Virus record (IMG/VR): IMGVR_UViG_3300020192_000008
Span: 32,001-96,000 of that record
Origin: a virus
Strand: one strand, 5' to 3'
DNA: 64,000 nt
Position 1 is the stretch's first letter, and each line of letters starts with the position of its first letter. The notes under the pieces were generated by a model that made no database searches, had not been told where the DNA came from, and worked only from the letters and a program-made list of their open reading frames with translations. Below, piece by piece: positions 9,233 to 64,000 of this stretch. The translations under genes were made by a program, and so were the position numbers.

Positions 9233-9604
9233 TAAGCCGATGGTTCCGTGAAGGAACCGAATGAAGTCGGACGCCCCTTCGGGCGCCTGCGTGTCGTTGT
9301 TACCGCCGACCAGATGGCCGATCTTCTCGCCCATGTTCGGGCCCACGAGATCAACCGCCGCAGCGATCTTCTCGAGCTTGCCCTCCTCGGCCGCCTTCTC
9401 CATCTGGGCGACTAGGCTCTCGTAGGGGACATCCGACTGGATGCCCTTCTCGTGCATCGCCGAAGCGACCTTCTCGGCCTCTTCGTGACGCATGCGGGCC
9501 TGGGCTTCCTTCTTCCAGAAGTCCCTTTCCCCGGCGAGTTGGGTGATCGCGGAAGCGCTCTTGGTGAGGAGGTCCTGGACCTGCGCGCTGCTCAGCTTGT
9601 TCAT
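9233..9604 (-). CDS. Small helical scaffold-like protein; ends at TTA (9233-9235)
   Basis: ATG 9604 with GGGGAG RBS; EKVAS, EKAAE and EKIAA motifs. In-frame TTA follows ...FLHGTIG. Reading it as Leu runs through the next gene's RBS and start. Confidence 0.65.
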
Positions 9605-9606
9605 GT

Positions 9607-11064
9607 TCAGCACTCCCCGCCGTCGAAGGCGTTCTTCTCGCGCCTGGGCGAATCTTTGCGCGTCTCTTTGTCCGCCTCGGAGGCGATCTTCTGGAGAAGC
9701 ATCTGGGCTGCCGCTTGCGCCGTCTGGTCAGAGGCGAGCTTGTGGCCAGCCTCTCCCGAGTGGGCGAACGCCTGCTGCAGCGTGGTGTCGGTGGCCTGCG
9801 TGAGAGCAGGCTCGTTGAAGTACTTGCCCAGCTCCGCTTTGCGGAGGCTGTAAGCCGAGTTGCGCTTGAGGTTGATGGCCGCCTCGTTCGAGGAGATCAT
9901 CGAGGTCTGGCTGCCGTAGCCGCCGGCGACAGGCTGACCGCCAGGCTCACCCGAGGCAGACGACTGGGGAGGCGTTGCCGCACCGCCGCCAGAGATCTGA
10001 GCCGGGTTGATGGCGTCTTCTGCCTGCTTGCGGAGACCGATGAGAGCATTGGCGAGAGACGCGCTCGCTGCCTTCTCCTCGGGCATCTCTTCATGGCGAG
10101 CGTTGAACGCCGTGTGGCCACCGAGAGCGCCAAGTGCGGTGTTGAGACCAACGCCGCCCTTGAGTGCGCCCATCGCAGCTTCACGAAGGTTGCCAGCACC
10201 CTGCATGCCCCGAAGAGCACCGATTGCCGAACCACCGAGAGCACCACGAGCAGCTGCGCCATCAGCCGAGTCAGCTCCGTAGCCGGCAAGAGCACCAGCC
10301 CCGCCGTATGCGAGACCCTTGCCGAGACCAGCAGCGGCACCACCGAGACCACCGAGTGCAGCTCCACCAGCTCCGCCCATGGCACCACGGCCAAGCATCG
10401 AAGCCTCGCTGCCCATCAGTCTCTCACCAAGAGCGCTGCCTGCTCCGCCCATGGCACCGAGGGCGCCACCTGCGAGAGCTCCACCACCAGCCCCGAGAGC
10501 GGCAGTCGTACCAGCTGAACGCATCACCGCGTTACGGAGACGCTCCGAGTCTTCCATCGCCTCTGGGTCTTCTTCCGCAACCTTCGACAGGGCGCGAGCA
10601 ACCTTCAGCTTCGCCGATGCGGTCTTGCCGCCACCGGAGAGAGCTGTCTGCTGCTGACCAGAACCGCCGGGGGGCGAGTCCATGGTGTTCTGCATCTGGT
10701 TGGCAGGGCCCGTGTTGGACGCCTGCATCCCCGGGTTCATCGGGGGCTGAGCGTGACCCTTGCCCTGGCCACCGGGGCCGGGGGGAGACTCACCACTCGT
10801 CGACTGGGAGACAGCGAGCGCGTTCGGGCCGGTACCAGGACCGATGTCCGAAGCCTGCTTGATCTGACCAGCCGCCCAGGCACATGCCTCCGCCAGCTTC
10901 TCAGCGTAGTCGGTGGGGATGCTCTGGTTGTCCTGCGTGTTGATGGGGGCAGCGGAAGCAGTCTTCTCGTGCCGAGCTGCCTCTGAGCGAACCATCCGCT
11001 CAGTAGCCCCTGCCATCGCTTCCTTGACGAGGTCTTGGAGCAGACCGCGATTGTGGGTTGGCAT
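9607..11064 (-). CDS. Putative scaffold/internal head protein with glycine-zipper insert
   Basis: 485 aa with at least 9 KxA motifs (EKTAS, EKLAE, IKQAS, GKTAS, SKVAE, EKAAS, RKQAE, HKLAS, QKIAS). Confidence 0.65.
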   Translation of the reverse strand: MPTHNRGLLQDLVKEAMAGATERMVRSEAARHEKTASAAPINTQDNQSIPTDYAEKLAEACAWAAGQIKQASDIGPGTGPNALAVSQSTSGESPPGPGGQGKGHAQPPMNPGMQASNTGPANQMQNTMDSPPGGSGQQQTALSGGGKTASAKLKVARALSKVAEEDPEAMEDSERLRNAVMRSAGTTAALGAGGGALAGGALGAMGGAGSALGERLMGSEASMLGRGAMGGAGGAALGGLGGAAAGLGKGLAYGGAGALAGYGADSADGAAARGALGGSAIGALRGMQGAGNLREAAMGALKGGVGLNTALGALGGHTAFNARHEEMPEEKAASASLANALIGLRKQAEDAINPAQISGGGAATPPQSSASGEPGGQPVAGGYGSQTSMISSNEAAINLKRNSAYSLRKAELGKYFNEPALTQATDTTLQQAFAHSGEAGHKLASDQTAQAAAQMLLQKIASEADKETRKDSPRREKNAFDGGEC

Positions 11065-12093: not shown

Positions 12094-13743
12094 TTACAGA
12101 AGGCCCCCGTAGATGTCAGCGCCCAACTCGTCCCAGAAAGCGTCCCGCAGATAGTGGACCGTGAGGGGAGTGAAGAGCTGATCAACTGGTGCCGACGCCA
12201 GCTTACTGAACTCACTACCCCTTGGGGCAGATGCGTTCAGAAGTCCTTGTGCGCCGCTCACCAGATCCATGAGAGTTGTTCGGTACCCGTTGTAGGCAGC
12301 TCCTATCTTACGCAGCACTTCTGAGGGATGGGAAGAAGAGGCCCTCTTCTCACCCCCGTCGCTCTTCTTCATCACAAGTACACGATGCTCAATCGCAGGC
12401 GCGAGAGCAGAGCGTGATTCCATGAGAGGGAGAAGAAGTCTTGCAAGTGAAGGAAGGAAGGAAGCGTGGCCGAGAGACATACTCTCAGTATCTTTCGATC
12501 TGGGGAAGACGATGTTCCGACGATCAAAGTCGTCAGCCATGTCTCTCCGTCCGATCTGAATCAAGACGATACGCTGAAACTCCCTGGGACGAAGAACGAT
12601 GCCCAAACCACCAGAAGTAGACAGGGAGCTGGGCAGGTCATGTTTCCCGAGTGCATCAAGCACATCATCAGGCAAATCTTCTTCTTCTCTCGACAGAGTG
12701 GCCACCGCCTTGCCAGCGAACTGGCTCGGCACAATGTCCTTGATGATCTCACTCTTCTTGAGCTTCGCGTCCTTGTATTGGAACGCTTCCTTGAAGATTG
12801 ACTCGTTGAGAGAAGCCGTCTTTTCCCCAACGGTCATCTCGTCGTAGCCGAGCTTCTCCGCCTCATAGGCAGAAGAGCCGAACGAATAGACGCGCCCCTC
12901 AGACGCGATCTTCATCATCGTCTTGGCTGTCTTGTCAGCCCCGATGAAGACGAAAGAGATGTCGAAGAACTTCGGGAAGTCGTTGTAGACGTACACCTTC
13001 CGGCCATCGGCCAGAATCTTGTTCATCTGATTGCGAGCGTGCTCGCAATAGTCCTTCCGAGTGATCGACACGCCCCGGATAGGGGTCTTCTTATGGATGG
13101 CGAGGATGGCCTGGCCCGGAGACGCGTGCTTCTTCGGGTCGAAGGTGGCAGCCGCCTCGTGGTACCGCTTCCAATCGAGGCAGATGGAGCACGTATCGAA
13201 GGGCACCTTGCAGCCCATCGAGACATCCGGAAACATGCCCTGGCTGAGCTTGTCCCAGACCTGCGTGCCCCCGTACTCCTGGCACTTGAGCTTATCGACC
13301 CGAGTAACGAGCTCGACGCGCTTGAGCCTCGGGTGCCAGACAGCCAGCTCCACCTCACCGAAGGCGCGGCCTGCGTCCTTGTTGCGATGGTGGGCGTAGG
13401 GGTGGGCTGAATAGAAGGTCGGGTAGCCGTACGCCCAATCCTTCGCCTTGATCTTGTCGAGCAAAGGGTTGCCCGTCCAATCATCAGGGCGATGGATCAG
13501 GGCAGCTTCTGGGAAGTGATCGCCGTTGACATTGGAGCCGAAGAACTCTCCGGCCCCCATGGCATTGACGAGGTTGTACGCTGCATCATTCCGGGGCCTG
13601 AGCGACTCGATATACTTGACGACGTCAGGAAGAAGTGTGGCTGATGCGGTCTTCTCGAAGTACGCATCAGACGCTTTGTTGAAGAGCGGGATGACCGTTG
13701 GGCCAGTCTCGCTCTCACCCCAGTATGTGCAGAGCTTGTACAT
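12094..13743 (-). CDS. Prohead maturation protease
   Basis: 549 aa with NGDHF, HH.NKD..RAFG, DVSMGC.V...CSIC and FFDISFVFIGAD motifs, matching the His/Ser HK97-type prohead protease layout. KxA sites flank the domain. Ends at TAA. Confidence 0.75.
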   Translation of the reverse strand: MYKLCTYWGESETGPTVIPLFNKASDAYFEKTASATLLPDVVKYIESLRPRNDAAYNLVNAMGAGEFFGSNVNGDHFPEAALIHRPDDWTGNPLLDKIKAKDWAYGYPTFYSAHPYAHHRNKDAGRAFGEVELAVWHPRLKRVELVTRVDKLKCQEYGGTQVWDKLSQGMFPDVSMGCKVPFDTCSICLDWKRYHEAAATFDPKKHASPGQAILAIHKKTPIRGVSITRKDYCEHARNQMNKILADGRKVYVYNDFPKFFDISFVFIGADKTAKTMMKIASEGRVYSFGSSAYEAEKLGYDEMTVGEKTASLNESIFKEAFQYKDAKLKKSEIIKDIVPSQFAGKAVATLSREEEDLPDDVLDALGKHDLPSSLSTSGGLGIVLRPREFQRIVLIQIGRRDMADDFDRRNIVFPRSKDTESMSLGHASFLPSLARLLLPLMESRSALAPAIEHRVLVMKKSDGGEKRASSSHPSEVLRKIGAAYNGYRTTLMDLVSGAQGLLNASAPRGSEFSKLASAPVDQLFTPLTVHYLRDAFWDELGADIYGGLL

Positions 13744-14282
13744 AAGGGGCCCTGACCGCCCTTGTTGTTGCGGCGCTGGTAGGGCTTGGCGACGACCTTG
13801 GGCTTGAGCGACTCGGCGAACGAGTTACCTGCGTGCTCACCACCCCTACGCCACGAATCAGCCATGGGGGACTTGAACTTGTCGGAGGCCGACAGGCTCT
13901 CGGTGAGGATGCCACCGGCTGACATGGGGTTGTCGGCCATGCGGCGCAGATAGGTCCCGGCGACGATCGGGTCCTTGGCGAAGTTCGGATTCATGTTCCG
14001 AAGCGACGAGTACATCTGGTTGAACATCTTCGGGTCGCGCTCGTGATGCTCATGCAGGTCCGGGTTCAGTTCCAAGATCTGCTTGAAGTCGTGCGACTTG
14101 GTGGCCGCATCGTAGATCTTGCCAGCGGCCATGCCGGCGCCGGCGAAGGCAACTCCGGCAGCAGCCATCCCAAGACCCTGCGTCATCGCATGGCCGAAGC
14201 CCTTGGCAGCTTCACCACCGAAGGCGACCTTCTCCTGGGGCTCGCCGTACTGGGCGTAGAAGTCATCGAGGGGGTTAGACAT
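13743..14282 (-). CDS. Virion protein (179 aa); ends at TTA overlapping the protease ATG
   Basis: EKVAF plus a hydrophobic segment. In-frame TTA at 13743-13745 forms TTATG with the next start. Confidence 0.65.
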
Positions 14283-15514: not shown

Positions 15515-16210
15515 ATGGATAAAAAACTCATGGGAAGCTGGCCCCGGCTGGTCTCCGTGCTGGAAGCAGCCGAGATGCTTTCGGTTTCTGTCGATCAAGT
15601 CCATCGCTGGAACCGGGATGGTCTACTAGAGGCTGAGTACCCAGAGGGAAGAAGAGGGGGGAAGTACTTCCAGACGGAAGACATCCAGACCCTCATAGAA
15701 GCTCGGGCCAGCAAGACGCTCTCTGACCATGATGTGAAGATTCTAGCCCTTCAGTCTCTGGTCTCCTCCAAGAGGGCAGAACGAAAACTCGATGAGCTGC
15801 TTGGGATGCTCGGTGTTTCGGACGTGAAGCTCGGTACCTCGAGGGAGGAGGTCTTGGCTTTCTTCGTCGAGGTAGAGGACGAGATCAAGGAGGGTGAGCC
15901 GCTCCTACCCGAGGAGGCGATCGGCTGGGCCAAGCGGATGCTGGGCATCACCGAGGAGTACCTGGAGCTAGTGAAGGAGCACACGTTCATGCTCGAGCCC
16001 TGGGTCCCGTACATGCAGCTCTCCAAGAAGCTGCACGACAAGTTCCCAGCAGGGCAGGCAGGGGCCTACCTCTCTCACGCCATCCGTAATCTTCGGCACA
16101 CGGCGTACTTCTACGTGCGTCGGGCGGATGGGGTGAGAGAGGCGACGAAGCGCTTTCCCGAGGGTGGCGTGACGAGCCAGCTCCTCGGGATCATGTTTCC
16201 GAAGAGCTAA
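15515..16210 (+). CDS. MerR/excisionase-type HTH DNA-binding protein
   Basis: LVSVLEAAEMLSVSVDQVHRWNRDGLL...F..EDI is a typical MerR/HTH_17 signature. Lone plus-strand gene in the virion module; the start may be ATG 15530. Confidence 0.7.
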   Translation: MDKKLMGSWPRLVSVLEAAEMLSVSVDQVHRWNRDGLLEAEYPEGRRGGKYFQTEDIQTLIEARASKTLSDHDVKILALQSLVSSKRAERKLDELLGMLGVSDVKLGTSREEVLAFFVEVEDEIKEGEPLLPEEAIGWAKRMLGITEEYLELVKEHTFMLEPWVPYMQLSKKLHDKFPAGQAGAYLSHAIRNLRHTAYFYVRRADGVREATKRFPEGGVTSQLLGIMFPKS

Positions 16211-19108
16211 CCCTTGGTTCGTTGGCCCCGAGTAACCGCCGAGGTTGGGGCCACCGCTCCGAGCGTTCTCTTTCTTCGGGGTGATGATGTCCGGCCTGGG
16301 GTGGATGATCATCGAGCCAACGAAGCAGTAGATGATAGAGTGCAACGCATCATCAGGCCGATCGGGCCTGTGCTGGTACTGGATCATGTGAAGAGACTGG
16401 TTGTACTCTGTGAAGATGTTCAGGATGTCTTGCCCGAACGGCTCACGGAACTCTTCCCACCTGGGGAACATGATCTGCTTGCGCTTGATGGCCGTGAAGA
16501 CATCGCTCACGACTTCCGTCTTGTGCACCTTCCAACGCTGCAGCTTACCGTCCCACTCGACCTTCTTCTTGTTACGGGCCATGTACTGGAAGCGGTGCAC
16601 GCGCTGGGTGCCGAAGCGACGGATCAAGTAGGCGTTGTTGTTGAAGCCACCGCCGTAGTCGCACCCGATGATGCGGACGTTGTACGCATGCAGGATGCGC
16701 TTGATCTTCTCGAGCTGGATCTCAGGGTCCGTGTCTTCACCCGTGAAGCGGTGGATGAAGAAGATCTTGAACTTCATCCCGTCGTAGTAGCCGAGACTCA
16801 TGACCGTGTAGCTGTTCTCGCCCGTGTTACCTTGGTACGCGATGCTTCCGTTACGCTCTGTGACGATGTACCCCGAAGGCACGGCGCAGCAGTACACCTT
16901 GCCCGCATAGGGGACGTGCTTCACCGCCGTGGAGGGGGTGTTGAACTGGTAGTCTCGGCCCTCCGACCACAAGGCTCTCCAGCGCGTCTTCCGGTTCCCC
17001 TCCGCAGGCTTGTGCAGCTTCACGGAGCACCGAAGACCGAGCTTTATGCAGATCTCCTGGAAGTCCTCGCACAGCCCTTTTGACGTCGAATAGAAGGCCC
17101 CTCCTGTGCAGCCCTCCCGAGGGTCCGTGTAACCGTCTCCGTCTACCAGGGCCTGAAACAAGATCCGAAGCTGCCTTTGGCCGAGGCCGAGGAACTCCCG
17201 TGGGATACGCTTCTCGTCCCCTTCGACCCCTACGTTCTGGGCGTACCACGCCCAGTACTGCTTGCCGTAAATGGTCCAGTTGACGTCCCCAGTCTTTGGG
17301 TTCGGGAACGCCTTGAACGAGACCCCCACCCGGTCGAGAGACGCCTGCATCTTGAGGTAGGTCTCGTGGTTGACCGTCTCCCTCTGCGACATCTTGAGGC
17401 AGGACGGGCGGCCCCCATCAAAGCAGACCCCGCCCTCTGTCACGAGATAGCCGAGTAGCTCCAACCAGTCGTCCATGGGGACGGTCTTGTCCTCAGAGCC
17501 CTTGTACCCAGGGCTCGTCGGCAGCCCCGGCAGCGTGAAGGCCTGCTTCTCCTCTCCTTGCCAGTCGACGTAGCCCACGAACTTGACGTTGCCGCCCCGT
17601 TCTACGAGTTCGCCCGCCGACTCGGTGAGCCACCGCTCTCCCTGGGAAGTCCCGACACGCATGCGGTGCGTATGGGTGATCATCAGATCGAGCCCCCCCT
17701 TGGTCTCGAAGTGTAGAAGTGGCTGGTCCCAGTCGCGTACCGTACGAACCTTCGGAGCCACGAAGGTCATCGCACGCGTTTCTGGATCCCACTGGGCTAC
17801 CTTGTCTTCGTCGGTGAGATCACAGAAGTACTTGAAGCCAGACTGCGTAAGAATGCGTGTCTTGTCATCGTGACAGCCCCAGTCGATGCCAGCGAAGATG
17901 TTGCCGGCGGTAGCCGTCTTGCGGATCTTCTCGAGGGCCGTGGGGTGCATCGTCAGCTTGGGGTCGCATGACTCCTTCAGCTGGCCCATGGTGATGGGCC
18001 GGAGGCCTGAGTCGTAAGACATCCCCAAGACTTCGTTGTAGAACTTGTCGCGGGGGTACCGCTCGTAGTCGAGCAGGATTTCCTCCCACGACCGCCAAGG
18101 CACCATCAGCTGGGGGATGCGGTAGCTCTCGAAGACCCCGTCACGGACCTGGTTGATCCACTTCGAGTCCTTGTGCATGGGGTCGATCTTCCCCCCGCAC
18201 TTCTCGCAGATGAGGCTCTTCTTACCGATGTTCTTCTCGCAGAGGATGTTCCAGTGCCGGCCAGCACCGCCACCAACGGAGGACCCGCAGTGGTCGCACG
18301 GCACCATCCACTCACCCTGCGTCGACATCGGGCGGCCCTTGGCCACGCCTGACCGGTAGAACTCGATGGGGTTGTCGAGCCCTTTGGGTGTGCCGGCGTA
18401 GATGAAGCGCTTGAACTTCTCCGGAGCGTGGCTTGTGCACTGCTCGATGACGGGGATGTTGTCGGCGAGAATGTCTTGGAGCTCGTCGAGGGTGAGCAGC
18501 CAGGCTGGGATGCCTCGGGTACGGTCGGCGTTGAGGAACGCATACCTCAAGGTGATCTTCGCCCGGTTGACGAACTGCTTCTCGAAGATGTTCTGCGACA
18601 GCATGGTCGTCGTGAACGTCTTCAAGACCTGGCTCGTCTCGATGGGCTCCTTGATACGGTCGACCGAGAAGACCTTCGTCTGCGTGGCTGACGGGCTCAC
18701 GTACAGCGTCTTGTACGCCGGCACGACGCACGAGTACGAGAGCATGATGTTGCCGATCATGGTCGACTTCTCGACCTGCCGGCCACAGAACAGGAGCACG
18801 CGCCTGGCTGGGGTGTTGTAGGGGCGGCGCATGTGCCGACGCCCCTCAAACGTGAAGTTCTCGTACCCCATACCGTCCTGCCGAGGCATCCGGAAGGCGA
18901 ACTCGGTGAACTGGCTGGGCAGGACAGCGGGGATCTTGACCGCTGCCCTGCGCTTCTCCTCTATCTCCCAGAAGTCCTCGAAGGGCTCTGGCTCAGGGAG
19001 CCAGGGCTTGCCGTTGTGCATCCTTCGGAGTTCTTCGTCTGTGAACTCTTCAGGCTCGAGGTCCTCTTCAGAAGGGACCGTGACGGGGTCAGGCTGGAAG
19101 CTGCTCAC
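16208..19108 (-). CDS. terL: Terminase large subunit (lambda GpA-like) with intein; ends at TTA
   Basis: GRQVEKST (Walker A variant), LTLDELQD (Walker B), GTP motif, CxxC...CxxC, GIDWG nuclease motif and C-terminal PDDALH. In-frame TTA at 16208-16210. Confidence 0.85.
16826..17875 (-). mobile_element. Intein with LAGLIDADG homing endonuclease in TerL (350 aa)
   Basis: Junctions GIDWG|CHDDKTRILT ... NGSIAYQGN|TGEN. Block B THTHRM; LAGLIDADG motifs LLGYLVTEGG and FQALVDGDG. Confidence 0.88.
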
Positions 19109-20450: not shown

Positions 20451-22628
20451 TAACGCCTGCTGGAACGCCAGCGTCTTGAGACCCTCGATGACATCCTCGA
20501 GGTACTTCACGCACTTCTCGAGAGGGCCCTGGGGGATTTTCGAGAGCCCGAGCCTCGACGACATCAGCAGCTCACAGAGCTTCGCCTGCGTGCTGTTGAT
20601 CTCCGGCAGGTAGGAGACGAACGTGTGGATGTTCTCGGGGTTCACGAAGCCGATGGAGAGGATCGTGTCGACCGAGGTGGGGTCGGGGATGAAGGCCGCC
20701 TCCTTGAAGAGGTTGCGCTTGAGGTCGAAGGCGGGGCTCGAAGCGAGCTTCTCCTGGGACTTCCTGCGCGAGGCCATCTTCACCGACTCGGCAGGCTGGA
20801 TGTGCCGGCCCACCCGGACGTCGACCGGCATGCCATGGGCAATCGCCTGGGCAAGCTTCGTCTGGGCGTAGCCGAGGTCTGTACCCAGGCCACCCAACAG
20901 GAAGAGCGAGTCGTCGAACGACAGGAAGTGCTTCTCGTCAGACGCCAGCTTGTCGATGGGGAAGCCCTCGAACGAGAAGCTGTTGACGCCCCCCGCCCTC
21001 ACGGTCACCGAAGCAAGCTTCCGCTGGGCGTGCGCCACCTTGTTCCCGCCCTCAGGGGCGCTCACCAGGACAACGCTTTCGGCCTTGCCCATGCCCATCC
21101 ACTTGTAGTCCTTGGGCAGGAGGAACGTACCCTCATCAGCCTGGGTGGGCTTCTGGATGTTGGGCTGCAGAGAGACTGTGCACTCGCGACCATCGTAGGT
21201 CTCGACGTGCAGCTTCTGCTCCCCGTCCGTGACCTTCCCCTTGATGGTCATGGGGATGGTCGCCTCTGTCTCGTCACCACTCTGACGAACGAACACGCCG
21301 GTGCCCGTGGGGGAACCGAACATGAGCTCGCCGTTGGTGCTCTGCAGGCTACCGGCGATCTCCGGCTGCACAGCCGCCGCCGACCCGTTCGTGAACAGGG
21401 CGATGGGCAGAACTGTGCCGTCGAGGTCAGTCAGGTTGGGGAATACGAGCCCCATCATCTCGGTGCCCTCCTCGTTCTGCACCTTGTACGTGCCGAACTC
21501 GGTGATGGGCTTGAGGTCTGCCAGCGGGGCGCCTTCACCCACGGCATCGTCAGTGACGGTGACCGAGCCATGCTCATCGGCATCCTGGGCGAGCTTCACC
21601 CCGAAGTGCTTGATGATGTCGCCTCGGCTGACGGAGTGAGCCTCCTTGACCTGCCAGTACTTGTGGTTCGCCTCCTTGACCCGGTAGCCCACGTTCTCCT
21701 TCGAGACCTGGATGACCGAGGGGCGGATGGCGCTCTCCATCGAGGAAGCCACCTTCTCGCTGGTCACCTGGTTGGTGTTCCAGATCTTGTTGATGGAGGG
21801 GAGGGTGGCGTGGGCGTTCTTCACGTACGCCTGTTGAACCCCAACGTCCTTCATCTCGTGGGCGAAGGAAGTAAGGTCGGAGCTCAGTGCTGTCGGAAGG
21901 ATGGCCTCGAGCAGAGAGGCTGACTTCTCCACACCAGTCAGGTCATGACCCGAGGTCTTGAGGTCAGACTCGTTCGGGTCCTTCTTGAAGCCCTTGAGCT
22001 TCTTGGCATCGACACCAAGCACCTTCGACAGGCGCTCTGCGAACTGCGCCTTGTTCTTGTCTTCGGCCGTCTTGGTCTCAACGTGCAGCTGCTCACGCAG
22101 GTAGTACTCGAGATCTGAGCTGGTCTTGCCCATCATCCCGCCGGCGCCACCCATGCCGCTGCCATCCCGGTGGGGCGGGTAGATCTGACTGGCCATCGAC
22201 GTGTCACCTGGCGTCTTGCTGGTGACATCGAAGGTCTGTGGGCGGAAGAGGGCTTCCTTCAGACGCCGCTCGGTGAGGGGAAGAACCTTCGAGTCACCAG
22301 TAACGATGAGGTCGAGGGGCTGAAGCTTCTTGTCCTTGACCACCACCGGGATGCGAACCGACTTCACGCCCACGGCGTCCTTGGCCTGGTCGCTTGCGCC
22401 TTGCTGCAGCTCGGTCTTGTTGGAGATCTCAATGTGGCCGAATGCAAAGCCACGCTCACCATCGATTCGATCCATCACCGTGTGAGGCTCGAAGTCCGAG
22501 ATGAAGGGGATCTGCTTGTACGCTTCCTGCAAGATCTCCTGCGACCACTGGTTCGGGTCTTCAGGAAGAACAGTCTCAGCGGCCGTCTTCTGGATCGGCA
22601 GGATGGAGTCGAGGTAGAGGTTCGTCAT
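20451..22628 (-). CDS. Large virion protein with many KxA motifs (725 aa); ends at TTA
   Basis: Two in-frame TTA codons (20451-20453, 20445-20447) lie just before the next GTG start at 20443. The standard code gives a ~500-nt overlap. Confidence 0.7.
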
Positions 22629-23295: not shown

Positions 23296-24492
23296 TCAAA
23301 CGAGGCACGATGCTTCGCCCGTGAGGATCATCCCGAAGAGAACAAGGGGAGGACTTCCAGGAACGGGTACTGGCGTAAAGGGGAAAGTGAGTTGCACCAA
23401 TGCCCCCTGAGCAGCCACGGGCTTGGAGCCCTTGCCCAGGCGAACAATGCTTCCCTTGACGTGGGCCAGAGCTCCGCCATCGAGAACCATACCGTTCTTG
23501 GCCTTCATCAAGATCTGATTCTCGCTCTCGAGAGTCAGGTCTTCTTTGCTCTTGATGTAGATCTTCTTCTTCGAGGTGAGAGCCACGTTGCCCTGCGCCC
23601 TGAGGAAGACGCCACCAGCCTTGTCGAAGAAGAACCTCATGACAACCTTGTCACGGGTCTTGTTGTCGATGGGGTCCCCTGTGTCTGCGTTGAATCCCTT
23701 GGGGGCTATCACGCACTCAACCACGATCTGCTCCTTACCGATGCTGAGCAAGTCGAGCAGGCCCTGCTCACCACCATCACCCGATGGCTCGATGATGGGG
23801 TCATGAATCTTGCCCACCTTCACCCGAACATCTGCCTCTTCATCATTGGCCAGGATGCGAAAGGTGTGGGTGTACTCGCTGGGTAGGTCCTGGTAAGCCG
23901 GGCCTTCTTGGATGCCCCAAAGAACAGACCCACCGTGGTTGTGGTGGGCATAGTTCTTCGTCATCTGCATCAACGTATCGGTGAGCGGGATGTAGATGCT
24001 CTGGCAGATCTCCGAGCAGCCGATCTGCAATACACCGCCCCGATGAAGGATAACGAAGTTGCCATCCCTCGTACGGAACCAGATGTCACCCGGCTTGGCC
24101 TTGGGCCTACCCCCTGAGAAAGTCGCGCTAGTCGAGCTCTTGTTCGGCTGGTTGTTCGACTGCGTTCCCTTGGGCGCGTCCGGAGCTGCCTGGTCGTTGT
24201 ACTCAACCGGCATGATGAACGAGCTCACGTAAGGGGGTGAGCTGTCGGAGGGGACGGTGACCATGCACTTGGCACCAACCTCGGGGAAGACGTAAGCGCC
24301 CTCCCCGTTGTTGTAGTGCAAGTACATGCTGCCTACTTGGATGCCAGCAAACCTATGCCGGTCGAACTGGCTGATGACATCCACCGTCCAGTTCGCCAGG
24401 TTGACGCCGACGATCTTCCCTTGAAGAACGTACGACTCAACGTTCCCCTCCATGAAGGTGAACGAGGTGCGGAAGCGTTGGATGCCTTGCAT
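23296..24492 (-). CDS. Baseplate central spike (gp5/gpV-like)
   Basis: N-terminal OB-fold-like pattern (PEVGAKCMV), beta-repeat C-terminal half and a tip-like end (RLG..SKPVA..G...G.I.TG). Confidence 0.55.
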   Translation of the reverse strand: MQGIQRFRTSFTFMEGNVESYVLQGKIVGVNLANWTVDVISQFDRHRFAGIQVGSMYLHYNNGEGAYVFPEVGAKCMVTVPSDSSPPYVSSFIMPVEYNDQAAPDAPKGTQSNNQPNKSSTSATFSGGRPKAKPGDIWFRTRDGNFVILHRGGVLQIGCSEICQSIYIPLTDTLMQMTKNYAHHNHGGSVLWGIQEGPAYQDLPSEYTHTFRILANDEEADVRVKVGKIHDPIIEPSGDGGEQGLLDLLSIGKEQIVVECVIAPKGFNADTGDPIDNKTRDKVVMRFFFDKAGGVFLRAQGNVALTSKKKIYIKSKEDLTLESENQILMKAKNGMVLDGGALAHVKGSIVRLGKGSKPVAAQGALVQLTFPFTPVPVPGSPPLVLFGMILTGEASCLV

Positions 24493-44216: not shown

Positions 44217-44622
44217 AGAAGTCCCGCACGAAGTGAAAGAGTTCCTTGAGGCTCAGGACCGCATCATCCGCTACCGGGAGGCTCACCCCGATGTCTTCGA
44301 GACGTACGAGGAGCTTGCCTCCACGTACAACGACAAGCTCGAGGCAGCTGACAAGGTCGTCCGGGGCGGGGCGCTGAGCGTGGGGCCCTTCGAGAAGTAC
44401 CAGGTCCAGAACAGCTACGACGCCGACAAGCTGTTCGAGGAAGTGGGTATGGAGAAGTTCCTGGCCATGGGTGGCACCATCAAGACGAAGGCTGTCTACG
44501 AGGTGGACCCCAACCGCCTCAAGGCCGCCATTGCTCAGGGCACTGTGCCAGCTGACGTGGTGAAGAAGGTGCACAAGGAGACACCGAAGTACCACAAGCC
44601 ACAGAAGCTGGTGGTCAGGTGA
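44200..44622 (+). CDS. Hypothetical protein
   Basis: ATG 44200 (MKTKTEEV), strongly biased codons. Confidence 0.65.
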   Translation: MKTKTEEVPHEVKEFLEAQDRIIRYREAHPDVFETYEELASTYNDKLEAADKVVRGGALSVGPFEKYQVQNSYDADKLFEEVGMEKFLAMGGTIKTKAVYEVDPNRLKAAIAQGTVPADVVKKVHKETPKYHKPQKLVVR

Positions 44623-44942
44623 GGACGGCGAAGTTCAACGCGCTCTCCGTCAAGGAGCTTTCTGCCAACTTCATCAGCTCTGACCCAGCGCTTGAGGGCA
44701 AAGCAGCCTTCGTCAGCACGCTGACGCAGAAGACGCATGGTCAGACCATTGGCAAGGTCTGGAGCAAGGACACCCTCGACTTGCTCACCCAGCTCAAGGC
44801 CTCGATGGAAGCAGACCTCGAGACGGTTCACTTCGCTGACGGGCCGACCAGTTCTTCCATCAACCAGCAACCTCGTCAGATCGACGAGGCTTTTGAGGGT
44901 GGGGGCATAGGCGAACACATCGGTGGTGAACGTCAAGTGTTA
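44619..44942 (+). CDS. Hypothetical protein; in-frame TTA at 44940-44942 (TGA four codons later)
   Basis: GTGA-coupled start; 107 aa up to TTA. Confidence 0.6.
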
Positions 44943-45047: not shown

Positions 45048-46430
45048 ATGGCTAGCAGCGAGCACCAGCTCATTTCCCTGATCATGAAGACAGGGGATTT
45101 GAAGACAGTACTCGAGTGGGGGATCACCGAAGACGATCTCCTGATGAACGACACGAACTCGGCGTTCAAGATCTTGATGTCGGTGTACACGAGCCCCGAT
45201 TCAAGGGGCGCTGTACTTGGGCCGTCATCAGCACTTGAGAGGTACCTGCCCGCGTGGCAGTTCGAGGTTGATGCGGGCATGACGCTCAACTTCCTTTGCA
45301 GCGAGGTGCGCAAGCGCAGGCTGTCGAAGGAGCTGAAACTCAAGGCACAGGCCTGCATCGAGTACGCAGACCTCAACCCTGAGGAGGCATTCAACCAGTT
45401 GAACGAGGCAGTGACCCTCTACCGCAACATCGATGCCGGCAAGTCAACAGACGTTGACCTGGCAACGGGCATGAAGAAGGTCATCGCGAAGTACAACAAG
45501 GCCAAGAACGGGCAGAGCATCGGCCGGTTCATGTGGCCTTGGAAGCCTCTGCAAGAGGCTACTGGTGGTGTGGCTGACGATGAGTTCGCCGTCTTCTACG
45601 GCAGGCCCAAGAGCATGAAGTCTTGGATCTTGATGTACCTCATCACCTTCGCCTTCGAGATGAACCAGAAGGTTCTCTTCTACACCAAGGAGATGACCGA
45701 CGAGCAGTGCTACCAGCGGATGGCCGCCATCATGGTCGGCGCTCTCTACCAGGACCTGCGCCTGGGCAAGCTGCCTGCCTTCCAGGAAGAGCAGCTGCAC
45801 GTCATCCAGCAGGTGGCCGAGGAGATGGCCTCGAAGAACAGGATGATCTGCCTCACGGCCAAGGACGTCGCTGGCAGGGACACCCCCAGCTGGCTGCGAG
45901 GCAAGATCGAGAAGTACCACCCCGACGTTGTCTTCGTCGACGGTCTGTACCTGATGAGCCCCGAGGCTCGCCGTAAGACGATGCAAGACCACGAGCGTGT
46001 TCGGGAGATCTCCCGTGACGTTCGACGCATCGTTCTCGAAGAGAAGGTCCCGCTGATGGCCACCATGCAGGCCAACCGGCAGGCAGCGAAGCACTCTGAA
46101 GGCAACCTTGATGAGATCGCCTTCTCTGACTCGCTCTCGCAAGACTGCACCATGGCTTGCCGGGTGATGTCCGACAAGCACCAGCCCACCATCAGCCTCG
46201 TGATGGCCGGCTCTCGTGAGTGGACGCTCGACGGGTTCCGGGTGCACGGCATCCCAGCGAGCAACTTCAGCTTCCACTCGGTTCTGACCAGCAAGGAGAT
46301 CGAACAGGTCAGGAAGAACGACGAAGAGGAGGACGAGCCGAAGGACAAGAAGCCCGTACGTCAGCCCCGCACGTTGGGGGCAGAGAAGCCTGCTCCCAAC
46401 TACAAGAAGACGCTCGAGAACATGCCGTTA
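45048..46430 (+). CDS. dnaB: DnaB-like replicative helicase; ends at TTA overlapping the primase ATG
   Basis: GGAGG RBS; GRPKSMKS Walker A, FVDGLYLM Walker B, MQANR and SDSLSQD. In-frame TTA at 46428-46430. Confidence 0.82.
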
Positions 46431-47398
46431 TGGACAGGCACTCGGAGGTACTTGCTATCGCACAGAAGTACCTTCACAAGGTCAAGAAGAGCGGGCCAGA
46501 CAACGTCATGGCGTTCTGCCCCTTCCACGACAACGTGAACACCCCGGCGTTCACGATGTCGTTGACCAAGGGCATCTGGTTCTGTTTCTCATGCCACGCC
46601 AAGGGAACACTCAAGATGTTCCTCAAGGCGATGGGCATAGGCGAGGGTCTTGTTCAGACGCACTACGGCTCGCTCATCGACGCCCTACGCAAGAACGTAG
46701 ACCCGGCCTTTGATCCCAACAAGCCTGGGGTCATCTGCCAAGAGCCTCTCGACGAAGCCATCCTCGGGTTCTTTCACGAGTGCCCGATGGATCTAATCAA
46801 CGAGGGCTTCACCGAGGAAACCCTGCTCCACTTTGGGGTGGGGTTCGACAAGAAGCACAACCGCATCACGTACCCCATCCGAGACTTCACGGGGAACCTG
46901 GTCGGCATCAGCGGGCGCACTGTTACAGGTGCCTACCCGAAGTACAAGGTCTACGACCTGGAGTACAAGGACTTCGGTCTGGGCGTCTACCACACCGACA
47001 AGTCTCGGTACCTCTGGAACTCGAGCGAGGTCTACCCTCAAGTCTACTTCTCAAGGGGCGAGAAGGTCGTGCTCGTTGAGGGCTTCAAGGCCTGCATGTG
47101 GGCCTGGCAAGCGGGTATAAAGAATGTGCTAGCCCTTCTAGGCTCATCAATGTCAGCCCAACAGAAGTGGGTGCTTGAGCGTCTAGGCGCACCGGTGTAC
47201 CTCTGGCTAGACAACGACGACGCCGGCCGTAATGGCACGAAGAAGATTGGCGATGATCTGTCCAAGTCCTTGGACGTGTTTGTCATCGGCTACGAAGAAG
47301 CGCAACCGAGTGATCTCGCCCTTGAAGATGTCCAGAGTAAAGTCGCCTCCGCGACGGACTATCACCTGTGGGCAGTAAGAAAGTACCTGAAAGGTTTA
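46430..47398 (+). CDS. dnaG: DnaG-like primase
   Basis: CPFH...CFSC zinc finger, GR...KY, and TOPRIM motifs VEGF and DNDDAG. Starts at a TTATG and ends TTA TGA. Confidence 0.88.
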
Positions 47399-48555
47399 TG
47401 AACATGGGCTCCTACGGCAAGACTGATATGAAGAACGCCCCGACCACCTTCCGCCAGTCGGTGGCCAGCCAGCAGAAACAGAAGCCCGAGAAGACTGGTG
47501 CTGGCGGGGGGAACGTCCCCTACTTCGTCAACCAGTTCAAACCCTCGACGGAAGAGCCAGACGTGGTGCGCCTCCTCAAGGGGGAGTACCCGGTCCAGCT
47601 GGCTGGGCAGAACGGTGAGCTGGTCGAGCAGACGCTCGCCTACTACATCTACCGCGAGCACTTCGATGGCCGTACCAACAAGAGCGCCATCTGCTCAGCG
47701 GGACCGTTCGCGATGGACCGCAAGAAGCGCCAGCCCTGCGATGGCTGCGACATCTACTGGGAGGAGCGGTCTGCGGGCAAGAAGCAGAACAACCGCATGT
47801 CCAACCGGGAGATGTACGTCTTCTCGATGCTTCATCACGCCAACTACGTGAAGACCGAGCAGCTCGACCGCAACACCGGCGCCGTGAAGGTGAACGATGA
47901 CGGCCAGCCGTACATGAACTGGGTACGGATGATGGCCCACGAGCGTGGGAAGTTCGCTGGCAAGGAGATGAAGGACGCCAACGCCCTTCACTGGGCCATG
48001 GGCTTCAACCACTTCAACGTCATCCGCGAGTACGACAAGCAGATCGGCAAGTCGTGCAGGGCGTGTGGTGTGAAGGCTGGGCGCAAGGGCGCTCACGAGG
48101 TCGGGGTCAAGAGCGAGGCGTGGTGTTGCCAGGGCTGCGGGGAGGCGCTCATCGAGGTCGACTCAACGGAGCTGGCGCCCAAGCAGATCGACGAGATCAC
48201 GTCTGACGTGGTCGAGTGCGCTGTGTGCAAGCGTGTCGGCTACCTGCAGGAGATGGTGTCCTGCACCGAGTGCTCGGATGGAACGCGCTCGGAGATCTTC
48301 GACGTGGACCTGGAGGTTCAGCGGGTGAAGCCTGCTGATGGTGGCAACCAGACGGTGCTGGCCATTGTGGGCTGGGCGAACCCGCACCCCATCGACCCTC
48401 GGCATGTGGAGATTGCCAGGCCGCTGGAGCTGCCGAAGATCTACGCGCCTACCCCGCTCGAGCGTCAGCACGAGCTCTTCGGTAGCTCGGGGAGGCAGCC
48501 GGTCACCGCTGGCAGCAAGCCCTACGGCGGGCCTCCGACTCTCGGCGGCAAGTTA
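47398..48555 (+). CDS. Probable ssDNA-binding protein with Cys clusters; ends at TTA
   Basis: Lies between primase and polymerase, with a gp32-like H..C..C..C pattern. TTA 48553-48555 immediately precedes a terminator. Confidence 0.5.
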
Positions 48556-48559
48556 GCAA

Positions 48560-48598
48560 AAAGGGGGAGCGGGTGATGAGCCCGCTCCCCCTTTCTCT
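48560..48598 (+). terminator. Intrinsic terminator
   Basis: 14-bp stem AAAGGGGGAGCGGG/CCCGCTCCCCCTTT with a pyrimidine tail. Confidence 0.75.
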
Positions 48599-48630
48599 AT
48601 CTACCCTACCGCCTACCCGGAGCGCCCTAC

Positions 48631-55280: not shown

Positions 55281-55620
55281 GGAACTGCTCGGGGCCTGCA
55301 ACCACACCGAGCTGCACCAGATCTGCAGGCGTATGGACATCCATGTCAGACCGACCGCAAGCCGGGAAGACATGATCGACTACATCTGCGGGAATGATGA
55401 ACCCCCTCCGCCATGGCACGGCATCAATGCCTGGCGACATGCCCTCATGGGCTTCGTTCTCGACAACTGGGAACTCATACGTTCTCAGATCTCCTGCCCG
55501 GCTAAGTCTGGTGACCCGCGTGCCTGCTTCGGTTGTACCGATACGCAGGTGATGTTCTGTGTTGTCGACAATCACGACAACGAGTCTCTCATCCAGCTGC
55601 ACAAGAAGGATCAACCATGA
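55255..55620 (+). CDS. Cys-rich hypothetical protein
   Basis: 121 aa with an N-terminal Rho-N/HeH-like helix pair and CP.....C..C......C. Confidence 0.55.
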   Translation: MSSSIRSFEELLGACNHTELHQICRRMDIHVRPTASREDMIDYICGNDEPPPPWHGINAWRHALMGFVLDNWELIRSQISCPAKSGDPRACFGCTDTQVMFCVVDNHDNESLIQLHKKDQP

Positions 55621-56324
55621 ACGCTCCCGCAACCACGATGCCCAGCCCCGAGACCGCTCCCCGCACGCCCGAGGAGCTGACGAAGATGACCGTCTTCCTC
55701 CAGCGCAGGCTGGCCGAGCAGCTCAACTCGTCGGGCTTCCCGGTCTGGACGAGCGAGCCGGAGAAGACGGCCTTCATCACCGAGACCAGCGAGAAGCGCG
55801 GGATGATCTTGGCCGAGAAGCTGGCCGCCTTCGACAAGGCCCGTGGCGGTGCTCCCGCCGCTGCAGCTCCGGTGGCTACGGTGACCCCCATCACCCCGCC
55901 GACGGAGGCAACGCCGGCGCCCGCCACGGCCAGCAAGCGTCAGCCCAAGACGCAGGCGGCTGCACCTCCTCCGGCAGCTGCCCCCGCTGTCAGCGGTGAG
56001 CAGGGGGTGCTCTCGTCCGAGGTCGTCAACCTGCTCAAGACGGTCTCGACCGACCTGAAGAACCTGCACGGGATGACCGATGCGAGGATCGAAGGGGTGG
56101 AGAACCGTCTCGATGGCGGCAAACTCGTCACCAAGGGCGACCTCGTGGAGCTCAAGGACATGCTCACGGCGTCGATGCGCGTGCAGCAGGCCACGCTCGG
56201 GGTGCTCTGCCTGTTCGGGCAGGAGGTGCTCAAGGCCTCCACCCGTGACGTGATGGGTCCGGCGATCGAGGAGGCGAACAACGCCCTCGACGCTCTGGAG
56301 GAACTGGGCAAGGGAAAAGCATTA
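55617..56324 (+). CDS. Hypothetical protein (235 aa) ending at TTA; -1 frameshift product extends to TAA 56509
   Basis: AAGGA RBS and ATGA coupling. G_GGA_AAA at 56312-56318, TTA at 56322-56324 and hairpin at 56329-56353. Confidence 0.7.
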
Positions 56325-61759: not shown

Positions 61760-62113
61760 TAAGAAGGAGTTCACATCAGGGAAGCTGGGGTTGATCTTCG
61801 TGCCCGCGAATGAGTACTTCAAACCTTCTTCGATGACCCAGATGCTCAGGTCACCCAGCGCCTTGCGGATCTTGTAGAGACTCGACTTGCTCACCCCGTT
61901 GTTAGGTCCGTGATACCCCCGGGCCATCTCGAGGGTGATGGGCTGAATCTTGTACCGGTAGGTGAACTCGTAATAGGGACTGCCGCCAAGCTTCTTGATG
62001 GCCTCCCAGAGCTTCTCGTACGTCTCCTTGTCTTCGGCGCTGAGCCGGTACTTCTGCGAAGGCTTCACCTTCTTGGTGCCTTCGTAGAACCTGCGCAGTC
62101 TTCGGAGGCTCAT
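61760..62113 (-). CDS. Hypothetical basic protein; ends at TTA (61760-61762)
   Basis: ATGA-coupled start. The in-frame TTA is followed 1 nt later by ATG of a short ORF (MTKKLKPWQG...). Confidence 0.5.
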
Positions 62114-62319
62114 GGCATGGCTTTCCGAGCGTGAGGTTTGATGCGAGCTACTAGCTCAGCCCCCACTGTTGTACCGCTTTCTATCGAAGACCTGCGGGCC
62201 TCTGCAACGAGCTGTTCTACCTGCTGCAGACACCACTGGTAGGCGGGCTTTTCATACGCCCCGTCCTCGGCGATGGTCCGCTGTACGTGCCGTGCGTAAG
62301 CACGAAACTCGTGGGCCAT
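62110..62319 (-). CDS. Small hypothetical protein (MAHEFRAY...)
   Basis: 69 aa; C-terminal portion of the 243-aa track ORF. Confidence 0.5.
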   Translation of the reverse strand: MAHEFRAYARHVQRTIAEDGAYEKPAYQWCLQQVEQLVAEARRSSIESGTTVGAELVARIKPHARKAMP

Positions 62320-62866
62320 TGTGCTTCGCGTAGTAGATGACGTCCTTCCAGTCGCCGGTACGGAAGTAGTCCGTCTCGGCGTTGTACGGCTGCGCCCAGA
62401 CGATGCCGAGGCCATCAGGATGGTGGTCCATCCACTCGATGATGTGGCTCTCCTTGTCGTCAACGAGGATGTCCCCCTTGCAGACGTACTTGGCGTGGGT
62501 CTGGATGACCTTGTTCTGGCGGAAGCCGAAGTGCTTGTAGAGCCACTCGCCCCGCTCGTACGCCCAGTGCCGGCTGCTGTGAGGGGCCGTGACCACGTAG
62601 ACGTCAGCCACCTCAAGCAGCTTGGGGATGCCCTCGAGTGCGGCCTGGTAGGGCTCGATGCCAAGGACCACACCAGGCGTCTCGTGGATGTAGCCCCAGA
62701 AGTCCTTCTCGATGAGGTCCCCGTGCTTGCTGAACAGGTCCCACATGTCGAGCTCCTCTTCCTTGAGCTCCTTGCCCGTCTTCTCGGAGATCCATCCAAG
62801 GGCAAGCTTGACGAAGTTCGCCAGCACACCATCACAGTCAACCAGCACGCGCTTACGTGGTCCCAT
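62297..62866 (-). CDS. HAD-family 5'(3')-deoxyribonucleotidase; ends at TTA
   Basis: DCDGVL, VVTAP, W...HF, K....GDILVDD and PYN motifs; AAGGAG RBS. Confidence 0.85.
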
Positions 62867-62954
62867 CTTCAACTCCTTCTCCCAGCTTCTCTAGCTCGGC
62901 TTTCGCATCATCCATCTCTCGCTGAAACCACGGCTTGCTGTTTTCATCCGCCAT
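62853..62954 (-). CDS. Small acidic peptide (33 aa) starting in a TTATG overlap
   Basis: AAGGAG RBS 5 nt upstream; MADENSKPWFQREMDDAKAELEKLGEGVEDGTT; TAA stop. Confidence 0.55.
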   Translation of the reverse strand: MADENSKPWFQREMDDAKAELEKLGEGVEDGTT

Positions 62955-64000
62955 AACGACTCCTTGATGAGTGCGAAGTTGTGTTCACCGGGGATGGTCT
63001 TGCGATGCTGGACCCACCCCTGGACATTGCCCAGGAAGTGCGTGCAACGATCGACGTCTATCCACGCCTTGTTGAGCTCATCCCACTCGTAGACGGGCTG
63101 GTAGAACATCTCGAGCTCCTTCTCCGTCATGGGCCTGCACGGGTGCTCGAGGGGGCTCATGTGCCCAGGCTTCACGAGCCTGTCGTAGAGCTCGAGGTCC
63201 TTGGAGATGTCGCGCTTGCCATCGTGGGCGAGGGCAGAGACGCGGGCGCAGCGGGCTGCGGAGACCTTCACCAGCTCAAGCCGTACCTCAGTCGTCGTGT
63301 CGCTCCAGGAGTAGTAGCTTGCGTCGCCACCGTCGACGTACGGCAGGTGCCACTCACCGTGCTTGAGCTGCTTGGGCTCGCTCTTGTCGTAGACATCCTT
63401 CATCATCCCCGCGACCATCTGCATCTCGGGTTGAGCGTTGGGGTCGCAACGCAGGGCGAAGAAGTTGTCCCACTCGGTCGCGGTACAGATCACAGTCTGC
63501 CAGCCCCACGGCTCGAGCAGGCGGTTGGCATGCTGCTTGTGTACAGCGAGGTTGAACAGGCCCTGAGCTGCACGGACGCACGCATCAAGCGCATCCGTCC
63601 AGTGCTTGGACGCTTCGTGGTTGGAGAGCTCGCTCATGACCTCGGTTGCCTGCATCCCCTTCTGGTTCTTGGTGAAGGCGATGGGTACGAAGGGGTTGGC
63701 CTTGACGCGCTCGATGTTCTTCTCGACGGGGATGGCCCTCGAGGAAGCTGAGTTACGGCTGTTGTGCACGACGACCCCATTCGCGAGGAAGTTGGGGTAC
63801 TTCCCCACGATCTCGAGGTCGTAGGTTGGCTCTTGGCCCCGCGAGACGATCTCGTCGATCCGTGCGAGAGACCCGTACAGATACGTGCCGCCCTGCCAGC
63901 CCTGCTTCTCGTGCATCGCGCAGTGGCAGTCGTCGCACAAGAGCGTGACGTTAGTCTCTTCCAGAGCCAGAGAAGGATCCTGATGCACCGGAACGACGTG
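62954..64000 (-). CDS. thyX: Flavin-dependent thymidylate synthase, C-terminal part with intein; ends at TTA
   Basis: SRNSASSRAIP, HKQ.ANRLLEP, NFF.LR....AQPE, SAARCARVS and H.SPLEH motifs; 5' end lies beyond the window. Confidence 0.82.
63761..64000 (-). mobile_element. C-terminal part of an HNH-containing intein in ThyX
   Basis: H..PV...N..LLC..CH...H HNH motif, then TYDLEI...NFLANGVVVHN|S splice junction. Confidence 0.85.

Follow-up and report, generated by a model that had tools for sequence, protein, structure and literature searches.

We examined a 64,000-nucleotide window (bases 32001–96000) of IMG/VR record IMGVR_UViG_3300020192_000008, a sequence of 107,272 bases and 60% GC from an uncultured phage that is referred to here as G000. 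A first-pass annotation had drawn attention to three consecutive replication genes on the plus strand, those of a DnaB-like replicative helicase, a DnaG-type primase and a candidate single-stranded-DNA-binding protein (SSB), all of which it took to end in TTA, a leucine triplet in the standard code. The analysis presented here suggests that G000 most likely uses TTA as an additional, fourth stop beside UGA, UAA and UAG.

The helicase gene product has the RecA-type C-terminal domain of DnaB, matching the Pfam DnaB_C family (PF03796) with an E-value of 3e-18 and 66.5 bits, against a cut-off of 27. The primase carries a CHC2 zinc ribbon, matched as Zn_ribbon_DnaG from residue 5 (PF01807, 42.4 bits), and a Toprim domain (PF13155, 40.6 bits). 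The SSB gene lies between the primase gene and that of a DNA polymerase, which Pfam assigns to family A. A nucleotide search of a phage collection with positions 45,048 to 51,024 returned no match, and tblastn matches to the G000 DnaB protein were all below 25% identity. A metagenome scan with a DnaB alignment yielded no relative closer than 51% among the matches listed, and a DnaB of 59% identity (P0002) is present in a protein collection. The closest relative retrieved for comparison, G001, is 50 to 84% identical to G000, with a DnaB of 51% identity. An Rfam scan of the window gave no match, and eight of the proteins were left without a name by PHROGs.

As described in the first-pass annotation, the helicase gene runs into the primase gene through the sequence TTATG. 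The TTA at 46428–46430 is in frame with the DnaB open reading frame (ORF) that translation table 11 places at 45048–46538, and its final base doubles as the first base of the primase ATG (46430). DnaB homologs numbered 168 at E<=1e-20, and every one of the 119 homologs listed covers at most 94% of the 496-residue standard ORF. In all 39 of the best homologs aligned, the C-terminus falls 0–3 residues from the TTA column, and none possesses the 35-residue tail that the standard code would add. Homologs sharing this tail, named in the first-pass annotation as the observation that would count against recoding, were found neither in this alignment nor by searching 1.84 billion representative proteins with the tail as a 36-residue query, although a query this short has little power. 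The GC content of the tail by codon position (0.28/0.81/0.56) differs from that of the gene (0.54/0.41/0.81) and corresponds to the periodicity of the primase frame. Furthermore, DnaB ends in ...ANM followed by TGA in G001 and in ...ENMP followed by TTA in G000, and the G001 primase, whose N-terminus aligns with that of G000, starts at a GTG overlapping the DnaB TGA. On comparison of these sequences, the DnaB TTA is a strong site for a stop reading.

The primase TTA is equally as annotated, in frame and followed directly by TGA (TTATGA), with the in-frame ATG of the next gene at 47398. However, it is no evidence for recoding: because of the ordinary stop directly behind, the triplet may either close the coding part as a leucine codon or open a pair of tandem stops, and decides nothing.

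The SSB protein had no match in Pfam or PHROGs. Its AlphaFold2 model (predicted local distance difference test score 86) was judged by structure comparison. With VIA-align it superposed on the cores of T4 and RB69 gp32 (1gpc, 2a1k_B) with a Z score of 10.1 and a root-mean-square deviation of 4.2–4.4 Å over 189–192 residues, while the next unrelated structure scored 3.1. Foldseek gave a probability of 0.96–0.97 against gp32, with an E-value of only about 0.01. The two proteins have in common a core fold of about 190 aligned residues, whereas their identity is 12–13% and the G000 protein carries about 150 additional residues with conserved CxxC pairs. At fold level, the model holds that this gene product possesses the gp32 core, an OB (oligonucleotide/oligosaccharide-binding) fold with a zinc site, and the label of SSB candidate is borne out; binding of single-stranded DNA is predicted.

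At the end of the SSB gene, the standard reading is 7 residues longer than the TTA reading. Its homologs end 0–5 residues past an aligned G-K position, three of them exactly there. Both possible ends are within the range of the family, and the TTA appears to fit a stop without proving one. A hairpin of -33.7 kcal/mol follows (z -5.07), and none of 200 shuffled sequences was equally stable. A consensus terminator scan did not call it, owing to its short T run. A hairpin is found at the equivalent place in G001, behind its TAG. The first-pass annotation was right to place the SSB TTA just before a hairpin; the stem is of 15 rather than 14 bp, the standard TGA (48574–48576) lies at the border of stem and loop rather than within the loop, and the TTA alone does not discriminate between the two readings.

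We extended the analysis to the whole record, using 115 ORFs picked by periodicity of GC at the third codon position (GC3) and comprising 31,801 codons. TTA is the rarest codon in this set, with 22 occurrences; TTG is found 211 times in gene bodies. The median relative position of TTA within its ORF is 0.84, against 0.50–0.59 for the rare codons ATA, TAT and CTA. All 22 in-frame TTAs either head a C-terminal tail without coding periodicity or belong to the opening codons of an ORF, ahead of its probable true start, which is marked for example by a signal peptide or the N-terminus of ThyX. Not one of the 22 is a conserved interior codon spanned by a genuine homolog alignment. Standard-code relatives of similar composition (n = 53, 58–64.5% GC) contain 0.219 homology-supported sense TTAs per 1000 codons; at this rate 7.0 interior TTAs would be expected in G000, against 0 observed (Poisson P = 9e-4). 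Off-frame, the trinucleotides TTA (107) and TAA (90) are common on the plus strand.

Under a four-stop code, the 118 gene ends comprise 70 TGA, 16 TAA, 14 TAG and 18 TTA, and the large overlaps that the standard code imposes (144, 157, 243 and 247 nt) are resolved. The TTA meets the ATG of the next gene as TTATG at five junctions and as TTAcATG at one. In 3 of 14 convergent gene pairs the two genes have their stop triplet in common, which is TAA for the plus-strand gene and TTA for its minus-strand partner (16208–16210 of the window; 7990–7992 and 21914–21916 of the genome, both outside the window). In G001 the pair that includes the terminase gene overlaps through a CTAG palindrome, giving TAG on both strands. 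The standard stops of G000 remain in use, terminating 100 of the 118 genes and delimiting long uninterrupted table 11 ORFs such as those of a 2126-residue RNA polymerase and a 797-residue PolA; the in-frame standard stops within conserved genes that mark stop-to-sense recoding were not found in G000. From these comparisons we consider it very probable that TTA marks the real ends of the genes concerned.

The TTA-ended genes of the window and the features around them are listed in Table 1. They occur in the virion module (9233, 13743, terminase 16208, 20451), in the replication module (44940, DnaB 46428, possibly SSB 48553, and 56322) and among genes of nucleotide metabolism (61760, 62297, ThyX 62954). 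This comparison of early and late genes across the genome upholds the earlier claim that the recoding extends to replication genes and is not a late-only switch.

Table 1 Features of the window discussed in the text (position 1 is the first base of the window).
Feature	Coordinates	Strand	Remarks
126-codon virion-module gene	9233..9613	-	TTA 9233–9235, then ribosome-binding site and ATG of next gene
179-codon gene	13743..14282	-	TTA 13743–13745 overlaps next ATG (TTATG); standard overlap 247 nt
Large terminase gene	16208..19108	-	TTA 16208–16210 is the TAA stop of convergent plus-strand gene 15515–16210; Pfam GpA_ATPase
725-codon virion gene	20451..22628	-	TTA 20451–20453; second TTA two codons on; standard tail 167 codons
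Small gene upstream of DnaB	44619..44942	+	TTA 44940–44942; standard stop 3 codons on; two homologs end at TTA, none spans it
DnaB-like replicative helicase gene	45048..46430	+	460 codons; closing TTA 46428–46430
DnaB-frame tail under standard code	46431..46538	+	35 codons; not protein-coding in DnaB frame
DnaG-type primase gene	46430..47401	+	ATG overlaps DnaB TTA (TTATG); ends TTA 47396–47398, TGA 47399–47401
gp32-like single-stranded-DNA-binding protein gene (predicted), extra CxxC pairs	47398..48555 (start 47398 or 47404)	+	closing TTA 48553–48555
Terminator-like hairpin	48560..48594	+	15-bp stem, 5-nt loop; begins five bases after SSB TTA
263-codon gene, early/replication block	55533..56324	+	TTA 56322–56324; tail without coding periodicity
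117-codon gene	61760..62113	-	TTA 61760–61762, one base before next ATG (TTAcATG)
NT5C-type 5'-nucleotidase gene	62297..62872	-	TTA 62297–62299; Pfam NT5C residues 9–178 of 191, profile 4–170 of 180
ThyX gene, continuing past window edge	62954..64000	-	TTA 62954–62956 overlaps next ATG (TTATG); Pfam Thy1

At three of these genes, encoding the terminase and the 725- and 126-residue proteins, G001 has TAG or TGA exactly where G000 has TTA. The terminase reads ...QG followed by TAG in G001 and ...QG followed by TTA in G000, and 44 homologs end at this position. The last residue of the 788-residue G001 ortholog of the 725-residue protein corresponds to the codon immediately preceding the TTA. The 126-codon gene has 49 homologs whose ends coincide with the TTA, and no homolog continues across it; the codon is TGA in G001, and orthologs in L103, L052 and L053 end in TTA too. 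Two low-identity alignments would make the TTA at 13743 a sense codon. They run through a variable tail and were rejected as noise.

The same comparisons bear on the possibility that ribosomes shift frame at UUA or bypass it, joining the upstream and downstream frames (as a DnaB–primase fusion, for example) after the model of the phiHau3 terminase. UUA-headed coding gaps do occur in actinophage terminase genes (PMC10732093), and G follows TTA, creating TAG in the +1 frame, at 6 of the 18 sites. However, the +1 TAG is missing at the other 12, on which ground frameshifting at TTA was rejected; moreover, the flanking genes of the relatives are separate and complete with ordinary stops at the same place, and no conserved gene of G000 is interrupted. 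We regard this explanation as scarcely credible.

By its capsid protein, G000 belongs to a large clade of phages of about 185–195 kb, with 248 relatives in IMG/VR. Their TTAs were classified on GC3-supported genes only. TTA encodes leucine in most members: in those of low and mid GC content it occurs in conserved blocks and is spanned by up to 63 homologs, one relative has a TTA within DnaB itself, and G001, which keeps the standard code, has one aligned to methionine within a conserved block. These spanned codons indicate that the method is able to tell sense from stop.

A minority of the clade behaves like G000. G409 (94 kb) and G410 (75 kb) contain 20 and 13 in-frame TTAs, respectively. None of these is spanned by a homolog, several coincide with the ends of dozens of homologs, and one closes the G409 PolA gene, again a replication gene. 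TTA ends as in G000 were also found in G411, L056 and L103, the last being a contig of an NCBI metagenome-assembled genome (MAG). An apparent 359-residue fusion in TTA-stop relatives proved to be two genes parted by TTA, a ribosome-binding site and ATG. In G409 and G410, TTA ends are common to orthologous genes though the standard tails behind them differ in length, and such conservation despite unequal tails speaks against the plain alternative that the code is the standard one, in which case TTA would encode leucine and the cell would make and tolerate tails of 35 residues in DnaB and of up to 167 in other proteins. The frames are indeed open, and an SSB longer by 7 residues would match the lengths seen among its homologs. 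Nevertheless, the tails lack coding periodicity and homologs, and it would have to be coincidence that the rarest codon stands in 18 genes at the stops of relatives and the starts of next genes. We consider a standard code very unlikely in G000.

Since the TTA-stop records derive from different samples and assemblies, a local assembly fault is ruled out. Systematic miscalls or an edited sequence might still have made TTA from real stops, and no relative with more than 60% DnaB identity was retrieved for comparison base by base. Against this, sequencing errors are not frame-aware, the TAA, TGA and TAG stops of 100 other genes are intact, and off-frame TTA and TAA trinucleotides are common. In addition, the 496-residue read-through DnaB is found on two contigs in a public protein collection, and the same habit was seen in four records from other samples as well as in the MAG contig. 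We therefore give little credence to an artefact of the data.

In a quick capsid tree, five TTA-stop records form one supported clade (SH-aLRT 98) that does not include G000, which is placed in a part of the tree with poor resolution. Taken as it stands, the tree would require two changes of state; its well-supported branches may still allow a single origin.

Three tandem tRNA-like genes are present in G411 (L219:272–503), with Rfam tRNA scores of 42–57 bits and abnormal anticodon arms. Their loops comprise a 4-nt GAAA, a loop of 8–9 nt and one with a 17-nt insert, and a normal anticodon is readable in none of them.

The question then arises of what reads UUA. No RF-1 domain was found in the 107-kb G000 record or in nine relatives (five complete 185–196-kb genomes and G409–G412), and no tRNA gene in G000, G409 or G410. 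As no release factor was found in the sampled phage DNA or in relatives, G000 has no tRNA and the codon occurs in early and late genes, we infer that a release factor of the host may be responsible. In the mechanism proposed, UUA would be a fourth stop: translation of DnaB would finish at 46428 and that of SSB at 48553, and the primase would be released either at 47396 or at the adjoining TGA. The protein recognising UUA would belong to the class I release factors and would most likely be a variant release factor 2 (RF2) of the host, in a cell that possesses no UUA-decoding tRNA-Leu. At UUAUG junctions, termination would be coupled to re-initiation, as at UGAUG or UAAUG. Considered as a whole, this mechanism seems to us moderately probable on the patterns of codon use described.

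A code change made by the phage itself has also to be considered, in which a release-factor-like or other factor would act in a host that reads UUA as leucine. Its gene might lie in the 42% of the genome that the record does not cover, or the factor might travel inside the virion. Phage-borne release factors have been reported for stop-recoded phages. The CheckV completeness of the record is 58%, and the virion operon includes a large RNA polymerase gene, so that proteins may be delivered at injection. However, the absence of an RF-1 domain from the sequences named above tells against such a factor, which would moreover be needed from the first minutes of infection, since replication genes end in TTA. 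This appears rather improbable.

Alternatively, UUA might be an unassigned, or 'hungry', codon. The host would lack or withhold tRNA-Leu(UAA), and the peptide would be freed from the stalled ribosome by rescue factors (ArfB-type, transfer-messenger RNA) or by drop-off, and no codon-specific release factor would take part. Many high-GC members of the clade avoid TTA, users of standard stops included, release factor and tRNA genes were not found in the phage, and rare UUA codons exert control in actinomycetes and their phages, as with Streptomyces bldA (PMC10732093). On the other hand, about 15% of genes, including those of terminase, DnaB and ThyX, would depend on slow rescue that usually tags its product for degradation. 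The junctions themselves resemble ordinary coupled stop/start overlaps, and ribosomes held up at UUAUG would leave the following ATG inaccessible, which argues for true termination there. The tandems TTA TGA and TTA TAG likewise resemble ordinary double stops. We judge a hungry codon unlikely.

Returning to termination by a host release factor, the effect on replication genes is as great as that on virion genes, so that UUA would need to be read as a stop as soon as infection begins, which points to the host. The position of G000 on the capsid tree, apart from the other TTA-stop phages, and the standard code of its closer relative G001 point in the same direction. The first-pass annotation favoured a constitutive or host-level code. 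Its rejection of a late-only switch stands, and a host-level code is likely but unproven, because a host with TTA stops was not found.

A hint that Myxococcota are hosts of the clade comes from binning, and from binning only. Two bins, labelled Myxococcales and Deltaproteobacteria, contain contigs of the clade; the RF2 loops of both keep SPF, and neither of these clade-bearing Myxococcota bins shows TTA stops, TTA being inside genes or giving no sign. The 72.7-kb contig L102 (CALFEQ010000011), from a Myxococcales MAG of 70% GC and 8.6 Mb, includes a capsid gene that differs very little from the one in G001.

The host was sought by comparing RF2 loops in an even sample of 400 Myxococcota genomes. 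The variants encountered were SPFGK..R[QE]TSF, SPYGK.RRETSF and SKFSGRRETSF, and in the stretches sampled they had no link to TTA usage. RF2 genes L164, L183, L170, L174 and L186 encode loops of these kinds (SPFGK(A/P)IRQTSF, SPYGK(Q/G)RRETSF and SKFSGRRETSF). G169, G094 and G067 were tried as TTA-stop hosts and rejected, TTA being read as sense; G309, G200 and G046 contain few TTAs, in ORFs without Pfam support. In G169 (L150–L159; Myxococcota, 64–68% GC), TTA occurs 129 times against 87 for CTA in 52,629 codons, along gene bodies and very often followed by G, and the RF2 loop is SPFGKGTRETSF as compared with SPFD..RRHTSF.

Several of the results weigh against a host-encoded UUA stop. Among the Myxococcota genomes examined, none was seen to restrict TTA to the ends of genes. 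The MAG holding the TTA-stop contig L103 has TTA mid-gene and a normal RF2 loop (SPF...RRHTSF). The 42% of the G000 genome that lies outside the record could carry a factor. Two of the three sites from which the first-pass annotation argued, those of primase and SSB, are uninformative on their own. Finally, the standard tails behind TTA measure 0–167 codons and backup stops are not enriched; these lengths, as in a random frame, give no sign of selection against read-through. We consider it an even matter whether there are free-living bacteria, possibly Myxococcota, in which an altered release factor ends translation at UUA and to which several unrelated phage groups, that of G000 among them, have adapted by adopting UUA stops in every class of gene.

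Codes in which UUA is a stop are established in organelles. The mitochondrial code of labyrinthuleans (Thraustochytrium) is NCBI table 23. UUA stops have been described in labyrinthulean mitochondria and peDinoflagellate plastids, where they are tied to a change in RF2, and in the mitochondria of Marsupiomonadales and Pycnococcus; mutated RF2 or RF1 with a substitution of Ser204 has been identified in these systems (PMC12574857). As in these organelles, UUA in G000 is outside gene bodies, at the stops of homologs and beside the standard stops, and the cognate tRNA is not encoded. In contrast, the organellar systems are tiny genomes with their own mutated release factor, whereas G000 is a phage of about 185 kb dependent on bacterial translation, and UUG and UCA are unaffected in G000.

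Stop-recoded phages (crAss-like, Lak and others) assign an amino acid to TAG or TGA, with suppressor tRNAs or release factors and a bias towards late genes. G000 resembles them in that its genes are mis-called under table 11 and its code differs from that of close relatives. It is unlike them in that the change is from sense to stop, all three standard stops are kept, no suppressor tRNA or release factor was found and there is no late bias. To our knowledge, the reported code variants of bacteria and phages are all stop-to-sense changes or amino-acid swaps, and our full-text literature search brought up no phage or bacterium in which a sense codon had become a stop, with UUA stops published for organelles only.

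A third comparison is with Streptomyces bldA and the Streptomyces phage phiHau3, in whose terminase gene an internal UUA heads a short bypass gap, after which translation resumes (PMC10732093). High GC content, a UUA that is nearly unused and its special positions in phage genes are features common to these systems and G000. In the former, however, UUA lies inside a gene and is bypassed or awaits its tRNA, whereas the proteins of G000 are complete at UUA and nothing downstream belongs to them.

Were a UUA stop confirmed, a sense-to-stop change would be added to the code variants known from bacteria and phages, and standard gene callers would be wrong for about 15% of the genes, producing false C-terminal tails, fusions and long overlaps. 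If the host reading also holds, it would be the first sense-to-stop change in cellular, non-organellar translation, and a barrier to gene flow between hosts. The pointer to the host enables a search for bacteria that lack tRNA-Leu(UAA) and possess a changed release factor and TTA at gene ends. Close phages with and without the trait would meanwhile offer a natural system for studying codon reassignment, host range and the limits of gene exchange.

Several genes of the window showed further features. The family A DNA polymerase gene (48631–51024) contains an intein, Pfam Intein_splicing and Hint matching residues 364–518 between the exonuclease and polymerase parts. ThyX (62954–65224, past the window edge) has an intein-like insert that starts C-L-A-G-D, ends V-V-V-H-N-S and includes an HNH-like Cys/His cluster. 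The terminase (16208–19108) has a weak LAGLIDADG match at residues 648–719. The RNA polymerase of the virion operon is encoded by a single ORF of 2126 codons (24492–30872) with zero TTA, and its ortholog in G410 ends in TTA TGA.

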